Assembly (NCBI RefSeq): GCF_000007145.1
Contig: NC_003902.1
Coordinates: forward strand, 340,325 to 372,324
Source of the DNA: Xanthomonas campestris pv. campestris str. ATCC 33913
GTDB taxonomy: Bacteria; Pseudomonadota; Gammaproteobacteria; Xanthomonadales; Xanthomonadaceae
Direction of reading: 5' to 3'
DNA length: 32,000 nt
A program made the translations under genes and the position numbers. Below, one piece after another: positions 23,343 through 25,372 of this stretch. The stretch's first letter is position 1; each line of letters begins with the position of its first letter. A model generated the notes under the pieces. The model was not told where the DNA came from. It was given only the letters and a program-made list of their open reading frames with translations, and did not search any database.

Positions 23343-24302
23343 TCAAAGTTCCAGCACCAGCCGTGGCGTGCGGCTGCGCGAACAGCACAGGGTGATCTGC
23401 GTGTTCTGCGCGTGTTCGCTGTCGCTGAGCACGCTGTCGCGGTGATCGGGCACGCCATCGAGCACGCCGGTCAGGCAGGCCCCGCACATGCCTTGCTCGC
23501 ACGACAGCGGCACCTCCACGCCTGCGGCCATCAGCGCACTGGCGATACTGCACTCGGCCGCCACCTGCACCACGCGCCCGCTGGCGGCCAGCTCAACTTC
23601 GAAGGCGTCGTCGGCGGCGTGCGGCACGGCCGGCGCGACCGCGGCGAAGTGTTCGCGATGCAGCTGCGCCGGCGCCCAGCCCTGCGCCAGGGCCAGCGCG
23701 CTGAAGTGATCCATGAACGCGGCCGGCCCGCACAGATACAGCTGGTCGCGCGCGTGTGCCTTGCGCAGTTCGGTGGGGATGTGCACACGCGGGCTCTCGC
23801 CCCCATCGCTCAGGTGCACCTGCACCTGGCCGTGCTGGAAGCCCTGCTGCAGGCGCTGCCCGAAGGCCACATCCGCCTGCCGGCGTGCGTAGTAGTGCAG
23901 CACGAAGGCCTCGCCGCGCGCTTCCAGCGCCTCGACCATCGACAGCAGCGGAGTGATGCCGATCCCGGCCGCCAGCAGCACATGGCGTTCGCCCGGGTGT
24001 AACGGGAACAGGTTGCGCGGCGTGGAGATCTGCAGCCGGTCGCCGGCCGCGAGTTGTTCGCACAGATGCCGCGAGCCGCCGCGCGAGGCGTCGGCCAGCT
24101 TCACGCACAACAGGTAATGGTCGCGCGCATGCGGCGCGCTGGCGATGGAGTACTGGCGGATCAAACCATCGGGCAGGTGCAGGTCCACATGCGCGCCGGC
24201 TTCAAAGGCCGGCAACTCCGCGCCGATCGGCTCCAACCGGATCGCCCGCTGGCGATGTCCCTGGTCGACGACTTCCGCCACACGCACCTCATGCAGGCTC
24301 AT
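23343..24302 (-). CDS. hpxE: PDR/VanB-type oxidoreductase (flavin + NAD + C-terminal plant-type 2Fe-2S), HpxE-like
   Basis: RQYSIAS flavin motif, LLAAGIGITPLLSM NAD motif and C-terminal CEQGMCGACLT...CC ferredoxin cysteines. ATG 24302 has GAGGAT 8 nt upstream. The alternative TTG 24323 overlaps the upstream stop. Confidence 0.8.
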   Translation of the reverse strand: MSLHEVRVAEVVDQGHRQRAIRLEPIGAELPAFEAGAHVDLHLPDGLIRQYSIASAPHARDHYLLCVKLADASRGGSRHLCEQLAAGDRLQISTPRNLFPLHPGERHVLLAAGIGITPLLSMVEALEARGEAFVLHYYARRQADVAFGQRLQQGFQHGQVQVHLSDGGESPRVHIPTELRKAHARDQLYLCGPAAFMDHFSALALAQGWAPAQLHREHFAAVAPAVPHAADDAFEVELAASGRVVQVAAECSIASALMAAGVEVPLSCEQGMCGACLTGVLDGVPDHRDSVLSDSEHAQNTQITLCCSRSRTPRLVLEL

Positions 24303-24319
24303 GCCGTCATCCTCGCCGG

Positions 24320-25372
24320 TCAACGCAGGAAAAAGTCGCTATAGCCCTGGCTGCGCAGGCCACGGCGATAGGCGATCGAACTGCGATCGGCGGGGATGTG
24401 CACTTCCAGCAGCGGGTCCAGCGGCAGGTATTCCGGGCGCTGCGCTTCCACCATCGCGCGGTCTTCCTCGAACACGCGCAGGTTGAAGGCATGGACGTCC
24501 TCCACCGGCAGATGGGTGTCGAAGTTGCGCGCAATCGGCACCAGCAGCCGGGTCTTGTGCTTGGACACCGGGCTGGCCGCGTTCATGATCACCAGCCGCT
24601 TGCCCGGCACCGGGAAGTGGATGGTGAGCGTGGCGGTGAACGGCAGGTGCACTTCGAAATGGCGCAGCCACTGGAAGCCGGGGTCAACGTCGGGCAGCGG
24701 CATGTCCACCGAATAGTTGGCCACGCTGCTGAGGTAATCGGCGTTGAAACCGGTCGGCGTTTCGGTGGTGGTGTAGGCCGGCACTTCGCGCTTGTCTGGC
24801 TGGGCGAAGGTGGCGGTGTGCACGAAGGCGAAATGCGCCACGTCGATAAAGCCTTCCAGCTGCCGCGCGGCACTGCCGGCGATGTCGAAGCCCGGGCACA
24901 CAATCTGCTGGAAGCCGTCCTCGTCCCAGCCCGGCATCGGCGGGATCTGCACCTCGGCCGCGCTCACCCCGGCCGGCTTGGCCAGGCACACCCAGATCAG
25001 CCCGTAGCGCTCGGCCACCGCATAGGTGTGCAGGCGCATCTTGGCGGGGATGTTCTGATTCGGGCTGGCCGGGATGTGGTTGCAGCGCCCGCCCGCGCCG
25101 AAGCGCAGCCCGTGATAGGCGCACACCACCCCGGCGCCATCGGCGCTGCCCATGCTCAGCGGCACGCCGCGATGCGGGCAGACATCGCGCGCGGCCACCA
25201 GCTCGGCGCCCAGCCGGTACAGCACCAACGGCTCGTCCAGCAGCATGGCCTTGAACGGCGCCTCGCTCACCTCGCTGCTCAGCGCCACCGCGTGCCAGTG
25301 CTGGGCCAGGCGCTGCCAGTCGGCGGCCTCAAAGGTGCAGTGCAGCGGCAGGGCGGGGACGGCGACATCCAT
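24320..25372 (-). CDS. hpxD: Rieske non-haem-iron oxygenase alpha subunit (class IA, no beta subunit), HpxD-like
   Basis: 350 aa from ATG 25372. Rieske motif CPHRGVPLS...CAYHGLRF. The catalytic domain carries the FIDVAHFAFVH iron-ligand region. Immediately followed by its reductase. Confidence 0.8.
   Translation of the reverse strand: MDVAVPALPLHCTFEAADWQRLAQHWHAVALSSEVSEAPFKAMLLDEPLVLYRLGAELVAARDVCPHRGVPLSMGSADGAGVVCAYHGLRFGAGGRCNHIPASPNQNIPAKMRLHTYAVAERYGLIWVCLAKPAGVSAAEVQIPPMPGWDEDGFQQIVCPGFDIAGSAARQLEGFIDVAHFAFVHTATFAQPDKREVPAYTTTETPTGFNADYLSSVANYSVDMPLPDVDPGFQWLRHFEVHLPFTATLTIHFPVPGKRLVIMNAASPVSKHKTRLLVPIARNFDTHLPVEDVHAFNLRVFEEDRAMVEAQRPEYLPLDPLLEVHIPADRSSIAYRRGLRSQGYSDFFLR

Follow-up and report, generated by a model that had tools for sequence, protein, structure and literature searches.

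The sequence analyzed here is a window of 32,000 nt from the complete 5.08-Mb genome of Xanthomonas campestris pv. campestris ATCC 33913 (NC_003902.1, positions 340325–372324). The study concerns an oxygenase–reductase gene pair in this window, labeled vanAB, and the LysR gene divergent from it. The three genes are orthologues of Klebsiella hpxD, hpxE, and hpxR and are called by these names below.

24320..25372, minus strand: hpxD (Xcc0297, labeled vanA), alpha-only Rieske non-haem iron oxygenase, 350 amino acids (aa), with Rieske and VanA_C domains
23343..24302, minus strand: hpxE (Xcc0296, labeled vanB), flavin/NADH/[2Fe-2S] reductase of the phthalate dioxygenase reductase (PDR)/VanB type, 319 aa
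25500..26417, plus strand: hpxR, divergent LysR regulator, 305 aa

The open reading frames (ORFs) of hpxD and hpxE are both real and intact and are transcribed from the minus strand. The Rieske ligands of HpxD (C65-x-H67 in CPHRG and C84-x-x-H87 in CAYHG), the bridging D177, and the iron ligands H180, H185, and D304 are invariant over 86 rows of the family alignment. HpxE consists of FAD/FMN-binding, NAD-binding, and C-terminal Fer2 domains; it carries the motifs RQYS, SRGGS, GIGITP, and C-x4-C-x2-C-x29-C and matches phthalate dioxygenase reductase (2pia) with an E value of 3.5e-52. No beta-subunit gene is present with the pair. With its CxH...CxxH motif, a D-xx-H-xxxx-H...D iron site, no beta subunit, and a C-terminal [2Fe-2S] reductase, the pair is a class IA two-component system. 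An earlier note on this DNA had described an alpha-only oxygenase with CPHRG...CAYHG, a PDR/VanB-type reductase, and a divergent LysR gene upstream, and all three descriptions are borne out. The start of HpxE is likely the ATG at 24302, 17 bp past the hpxD stop, rather than the TTG at 24323; the former gives the 319-aa form found in the protein collection. From its likeness to 2pia, HpxE would bind flavin mononucleotide (FMN) instead of flavin adenine dinucleotide (FAD), and HpxD is predicted to form an alpha3 assembly, as judged by its likeness to GxtA and SxtT. The predicted model of HpxD (predicted local distance difference test score of 79.6) has template modeling (TM) scores of 0.73 to 0.78 to GxtA, SxtT, and NdmA at ~30% identity, and these three are the nearest solved relatives, among which there is no close HpxD structure. 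Stranded RNA data (three runs from one study), with strands assigned by the usual first-mate-antisense convention, show sense reads over hpxD, hpxE, and, on the opposite strand, hpxR, and the expression is basal only. Homologues at 95 to 97% come from Xanthomonas, and the reductase falls into a cluster with proteins of X. campestris. The database cluster of the LysR protein (25500–26417) also holds TatD proteins, probably a clustering artefact of fused read-through of both neighbors.

The reference locus of K. pneumoniae comprises seven genes, for 5-hydroxyisourate (HIU) hydrolase, 2-oxo-4-hydroxy-4-carboxy-5-ureidoimidazoline (OHCU) decarboxylase, a permease, an FAD monooxygenase, a LysR regulator, the oxygenase, and the reductase; Klebsiella hpxDE oxidize hypoxanthine to xanthine and urate (PMC7373994, PMC13751858). 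The window oxygenase is 64% identical to K. pneumoniae HpxD (P0102) in an end-to-end alignment, and the reductase is 48% identical to HpxE; both are the best matches in the genome. The LysR protein is 49% identical to HpxR, whereas all other LysR proteins of the genome are at ≤28% and the genome's VanB reaches only 32% with HpxE. The runner-up matches to HpxD, HpxE, and HpxR are at 23%, 32%, and 28%, respectively. A homologue search returned NCBI-named HpxD proteins of Klebsiella and Erwinia at 64 to 67%. The regulator gene diverges from the oxygenase–reductase pair in both the window and the Klebsiella locus, and the catalytic-domain residues that were checked are nearly all identical between the window protein and HpxD. 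A quick tree places the window protein together with Klebsiella HpxD in one branch of 84 rows (Shimodaira–Hasegawa-like approximate likelihood ratio test, SH-aLRT, of 95), which lies far from both a 46% paralogue and the VanA of the genome. SH-aLRT is the only support measure of this tree, and the outgroup branches are very long, so that its root and deep order were not used. NCBIfam contains no HpxD model, and membership cannot be scored by a cut-off. A literature search found no paper naming both "hpxD" and "Xanthomonas", and we know of no in vitro study of HpxD. Pope et al. (2009) reportedly list Xanthomonas in their abstract among the genera with homologues of Klebsiella purine enzymes.

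Other loci with HpxD or HpxD-like genes were also seen. In Xanthomonas sp. Kuri4-1/Lysobacteraceae USHLN149 (L121, 11454–15200, on the same contig as L047), genes for a TonB-dependent receptor and an amidohydrolase lie between hpxD and hpxE. A 325-aa paralogue with 45 to 47% identity (L031, L032, and L124, 7388–8365) occurs in two genomes of the family without XdhB and OHCU decarboxylase; it agrees with HpxD at most of the catalytic-domain positions that were checked, and its surroundings showed no purine genes. Beyond the Proteobacteria, HpxD-like genes at 56 to 61% are present in Streptomyces and Frankia (L100, L113–L116), with one in an Acidobacterium (L109), and no XdhB over the cut-off accompanies them.

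The pair has been called a second vanAB set in X. campestris (Xcc0296–0297; PMC4682078) and vanA/vanB in X. citri (XAC0310–0311; PMC6337780). A second vanillate or syringate O-demethylase, as these labels imply, would agree with the VanA_C domain and the PDR/VanB-type reductase of the pair and with the induction of the X. citri pair by syringaldehyde (PMC11393088). However, the genome has a separate VanAB-like pair at 435–437 kb, near pca genes and closest to DdmC, and its VanA is only 23 to 32% identical to the window oxygenase. In X. citri, deletion of XAC0310–11 led to no accumulation of vanillate or syringate, whereas deletion of XAC0362–63 did; only the latter pair is needed for removal of the two compounds and is credited with the activity (PMC11393088). 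The window oxygenase is not an orthologue of VanA, the X. citri counterpart of the pair is not needed in vanillate demethylation, and the labeled function, already largely refuted, is hardly credible.

Another alternative is a purine-ring oxygenase with a different role. The sequence of NdmA is the closest solved one to the window oxygenase (E value of 1e-40), and N297 and F301 of the latter align with NdmA pocket positions altered in the QL specificity mutant. A 66% homologue adjoins ndmC/ndmD-like genes in P. putida, and some homologues coexist with XdhB. The enzyme might then have another or narrower job, catalyzing one step only, or C8 oxidation or NdmA-like N-demethylation of methylated purines. 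Against this, its identity is ~30% to NdmA compared with 64% to HpxD, and the genome has neither another close Rieske paralogue nor an NdmD-type reductase; it has only one other VanA-type Rieske oxygenase. With 25 to 31% identity to NdmA/NdmB and a plain PDR-type reductase as its partner, the window oxygenase does not belong to that group. In addition, the next gene in the P. putida locus is HpxO-like (47%), which fits a conversion of xanthine to urate, and no further xanthine-oxidizing candidate was found in the Xanthomonas genome. Such a deviating role is very unlikely. The earlier note had held that sequence alone could not separate an HpxDE role from VanA- or NdmA-type activities, which was too cautious in view of the identities of 64% to HpxD, ~30% to NdmA, and 23 to 32% to VanA.

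In P. putida (L117, 6955–17032, and L118), hpxR-hpxD-hpxO-like genes occur without a reductase gene of their own, beside genes of NdmC-like (VanA_C only) and NdmD-like (Rieske, NAD, and Fer2) architecture. The HpxD homologue there may use NdmD as its reductase and act on xanthine that remains after caffeine demethylation. Because of the pocket residues shared with NdmA, the P. putida ndm cluster, and the persistence beside XdhB in some genomes, the HpxD family could be imagined as a broader group of purine-ring oxygenases that also oxidize methylxanthines at C8, a reaction without an assigned bacterial gene in a 2015 review (PMC4408171). We consider this extension improbable. If it were true, purine alkaloids of plants would be further substrates of the Xanthomonas enzyme, and HpxD could represent the lineage that gave rise to the caffeine demethylases.

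The distribution of xanthine dehydrogenase (XDH) bears on the function of the pair. XdhB is absent from the genome, where the best score is 187 bits against a cut-off of 849.5. The genome has three molybdenum (Mo)-hydroxylase large subunits (PF02738), and databases name such proteins as xanthine dehydrogenase family, so that HpxDE might be real and yet not the sole route, with one of the three also oxidizing xanthine. But two of them exceed the cut-off of the PaoC aldehyde oxidoreductase (1375 and 1260 versus 1180), and the closest matches of the third are PaoC and a bacterial aldehyde oxidase. All three are only 23 to 27% identical to true XdhB; where XdhB has the glutamate after GGFGGK (GGK-E), L or G is found in the two PaoC types, and no recognized purine genes lie near any of the three. 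A Mo-dependent second route, which would make a replacement of XDH a wrong description, is highly improbable. One PaoC-type subunit (L017, 6226–8634; G000:C1:4412225–4414633) has no adjoining gene for an FAD or Fe-S subunit in the ORF scan and is possibly an orphan.

Within the genus, hpxD is found in 36 of 40 Xanthomonas genomes and XdhB in none of the 40. Of the four genomes that lack hpxD, three are without OHCU decarboxylase as well; in genome G739, hpxD and OHCU decarboxylase are both lost and vanA is kept. The p values at this level (0.004 and 0.0005) ignore kinship and were not relied on. Among 250 genomes of the family, 40 have OHCU decarboxylase, and these consist of 12 with HpxD and 28 with XdhB, with no genome having both or neither; G066 is unscored for HpxD in this sample, yet it is in neither of the other lists. 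In the relative G134 (L125, G134:C1:1280000–1298000), xdhABC comes after the same series of purine genes, and the stretch has no match to hpxD. A LysR protein 74% identical to the window HpxR is encoded there between the gamma-glutamyltransferase-like and allantoate amidohydrolase genes; the regulator is retained while the hydroxylase differs. A class-wide sample of 401 genomes spread evenly over families has HpxD in the ATCC 33913 genome only and is uninformative.

Two candidate elements lie in the 127 bp that separate hpxR from hpxD.

25457..25478, no strand: candidate HpxR operator, with the palindrome TTGCA-N5-TGCAA (T-N11-A) at 25464–25478, including a conserved TTTTGCA half-site
25413..25441, minus strand: candidate sigma70 promoter of hpxDE, TTGATC-17 nt-TAGAGT

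TTTTGCA occurs 5' of the oxygenase in 43 of the 54 loci with a divergent hpxR, compared with 2.9% of random stretches. The site of Klebsiella HpxR, which we take to be TCTGC-N4-GCAAA, is present as its reverse complement at the corresponding position in the locus L001, and the window operator has retained one half, TTTGC, and, from the second half, GC. The spacing between the putative promoter and the operator is kept in Xanthomonas, Pseudomonas, and Stutzerimonas loci, with similar hexamers. RNA fragment ends at 25460–25468, a weak signal of five to nine molecules per place, suggest that hpxR transcription starts inside the candidate operator, as an autorepressing LysR would have it. A consensus sigma70/terminator scan detected neither the proposed hpxDE promoter nor any terminator, a sigma54 pattern search upstream of the purine genes gave nothing, and a scan of the window with Rfam gave nothing at the gathering score, including the xanthine (NMT1) riboswitch. 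In an X. citri transcriptome, XAC0310/0311 fall together with glnA, glnB, amtB, and XAC0295–0301, which span HIU hydrolase to allantoate amidohydrolase (PMC6337780). This joint drop fits the behavior expected of nitrogen-scavenging genes, although the evidence is indirect.

Considering the identities, gene layout, tree position, shared operator, absence of XDH, and either/or distribution with XdhB, we conclude that the pair is very probably the Xanthomonas HpxDE, an NADH- and O2-dependent, Mo-independent hydroxylase that would convert hypoxanthine and xanthine to urate and stand in for XDH. The same observations uphold the resemblance to Klebsiella hpxDE pointed out in the earlier note. Its further proposal, that the pair replaces XDH, holds in the Xanthomonas family and is not general. 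Several points weigh against our conclusion. The 12 HpxD genomes of the family represent about one clade, and the either/or split may reflect few events. Outside the family, 14 of 70 genomes carry an HpxD-like gene together with XdhB, and ~60% identity alone may not fix the substrate. G752, a limited genome, has OHCU decarboxylase, and neither HpxD nor XdhB was found in it. XAC0310–11 and Xcc0296–97 were matched to the window pair by gene order, not by sequence comparison, and the upregulation of the former by syringaldehyde is not explained by an HpxDE function (PMC11393088). The function of the Klebsiella reference was taken second-hand from PMC7373994 and PMC13751858. As to the 14 genomes with both enzymes, none has urate-pathway genes beside the oxygenase. 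Conversely, in 26 loci from outside Xanthomonas, urate genes lie within 10 kb of the oxygenase; these loci come from four distant groups (Enterobacterales, Pseudomonadaceae, Sphingomonadales, and Acetobacteraceae), and none goes with XdhB over the cut-off. Across 81 hpxD loci, a reductase is the neighbor in 60 and HpxR is present in 56.

The window contains further purine genes downstream of the pair.

21578..22891, minus strand: AzgA-type (nucleobase cation symporter 2, NCS2) purine permease, 437 aa; PF00860; best solved relatives AZG1/AZG2 (AZG1 E value of 1e-69)
19886..21454, minus strand: adenosine-deaminase-family protein, 522 aa, with a signal-peptide-like N terminus; PF00962; under the NCBIfam cut-offs
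18593..19756, minus strand: inosine-uridine nucleoside hydrolase family protein; PF01156
16996..18456, minus strand: AtzE-family amidase; TIGR02715 at 679 bits, cut-off 426
15416..16999, minus strand: gamma-glutamyltransferase-like protein; PF01019; TIGR00066 at 351 bits, slightly below the cut-off
2868..8875, minus strand: urate-to-end-product operon; NF006775, TIGR03212, NF033625, TIGR03164, and TIGR02962 all above their cut-offs

The permease is a candidate importer of hypoxanthine, adenine, and guanine. The earlier note had placed it directly downstream of the pair; the strand and the AzgA type were correct. However, ~450 bp separate the reductase stop (23343) from the permease ATG (22891), the RNA depth is 12 to 16 in this gap versus 28 to 73 over the permease, and in 4 of 10 other Xanthomonas loci a permease match within 10 kb is absent while the hpxDE pair is kept. 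The permease probably has its own promoter. The signal-peptide-like start of the long adenosine-deaminase-family protein suggests deamination outside the cytoplasm, and the gamma-glutamyltransferase-like protein is a candidate HpxW-type oxamate amidohydrolase. No match to guanine deaminase (TIGR02967) over the cut-off was found. The urate operon encodes allantoate amidohydrolase, a PucG-like aminotransferase, PuuE allantoinase, HpxZ, OHCU decarboxylase, a flavin monooxygenase, and HIU hydrolase. The flavin monooxygenase is a candidate HpyO, because it occupies the slot where a urate oxidase is needed and the HpyO urate hydroxylase was identified in Xanthomonas (PMC4562309). The statement of the earlier note that the context is entirely purine holds for the downstream genes and the urate cluster at 2.9 to 10 kb; however, genes for a cardiolipin synthase, an exo/endonuclease-phosphatase, and a major facilitator superfamily (MFS) protein intervene, and tatD is located beyond the LysR gene.

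Some additional features were noted. At 10556–11589, between the second LysR gene and the MFS gene, a 186-bp unit is repeated in tandem about six times (copies 66 to 100% alike), and the ORFs across the repeats have no Pfam match. Four copies of a ~136-bp intergenic repeat are found at 28288–28821, where, as at 18500–18680, 19820–19870, and 26450–26690, reads from other places pile up like those of dispersed genome repeats. A DIOX_N/2-oxoglutarate (2OG)-Fe(II) oxygenase gene lies near hpxD in three distant loci (L001, 16110–17138; L117, 10882–11880; L120, 15313–16272), and such genes have also been linked to the xanthine riboswitch (PMC7373994). A similar 2OG-Fe(II) oxygenase gene of the present genome is among trp/accD/glmM-like genes and was set aside.

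We infer the chemistry of the pair from the Rieske family and Klebsiella genetics. HpxE would move electrons from NADH via its flavin and [2Fe-2S] cluster to the Rieske cluster of HpxD (C65/H67/C84/H87), from which they would reach the mononuclear iron (H180/H185/D304) of the neighboring subunit in the alpha3 ring by way of D177. This iron would activate O2 and hydroxylate the purine ring, first at C2 (hypoxanthine to xanthine) and then at C8 (xanthine to urate). NADH and O2 would be spent at each step, and O2 would be the source of the oxygen introduced, in contrast to XDH, which takes it from water. In the predicted pathway, hypoxanthine is freed by the deaminase and the nucleoside hydrolase, and purine bases are taken up by the permease; HpxDE produces urate, whose nitrogen is freed by the downstream operon. 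The divergent HpxR probably regulates hpxDE.

This is not a new kind of system, and a specialist is unlikely to be surprised by HpxDE in Xanthomonas; its value lies in correcting the vanAB mislabel. A pair present in 36 of 40 Xanthomonas genomes is reassigned from a "second vanAB" to the first step in the use of purine nitrogen. The assignment accounts for the negative vanillate knockout in X. citri and fills the gap upstream of the urate pathway in Xanthomonas genomes without XDH. It also provides a clear example of a gene cluster in which one or the other of two unrelated enzymes occurs, and the HpxD protein is a usable handle on purine-ring hydroxylation by a Rieske enzyme.

Compared with known systems, the closest is HpxDE/HpxR of K. 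pneumoniae and K. oxytoca, which shares 64/48/49% identity, all metal ligands, the divergent layout, the TTTTGCA half-site, and a linked urate pathway. The Klebsiella locus has hpxO-hpxPQT, whereas the window has the AzgA permease, deaminase, and nucleoside hydrolase beside hpxDE, and its urate operon is 14 to 20 kb away, unlike in Klebsiella. The urate step is catalyzed by HpxO in Klebsiella and would depend on the HpyO-like protein in the window, the best HpxO match (28%) being elsewhere in the genome. The VanAB/DdmC O-demethylases (Xcc0362–63, XAC0362–63) share a Rieske and VanA_C oxygenase with a PDR-type reductase, but differ in their identity (21 to 32%), their own locus near pca genes, and widely different catalytic-domain residues. 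NdmA/NdmB of P. putida CBB5 share the fold (TM scores of 0.71 to 0.74), the purine substrate class, and the pocket Asn and Phe; they are 25 to 31% identical, use the Rieske-bearing reductase NdmD, and catalyze N-demethylation instead of ring hydroxylation. The saxitoxin hydroxylases SxtT and GxtA are the best structural matches (TM scores of 0.77 to 0.78) and also hydroxylate C–H bonds of a guanidinium-rich heterocycle, but they are ~29% identical and belong to an unrelated pathway. Proteobacterial XdhABC has the same predicted net reaction and sits in the same cluster in G134; it is an unrelated molybdo-flavoenzyme that uses water and yields NADH, whereas the Xanthomonas pair would consume O2 and NADH.
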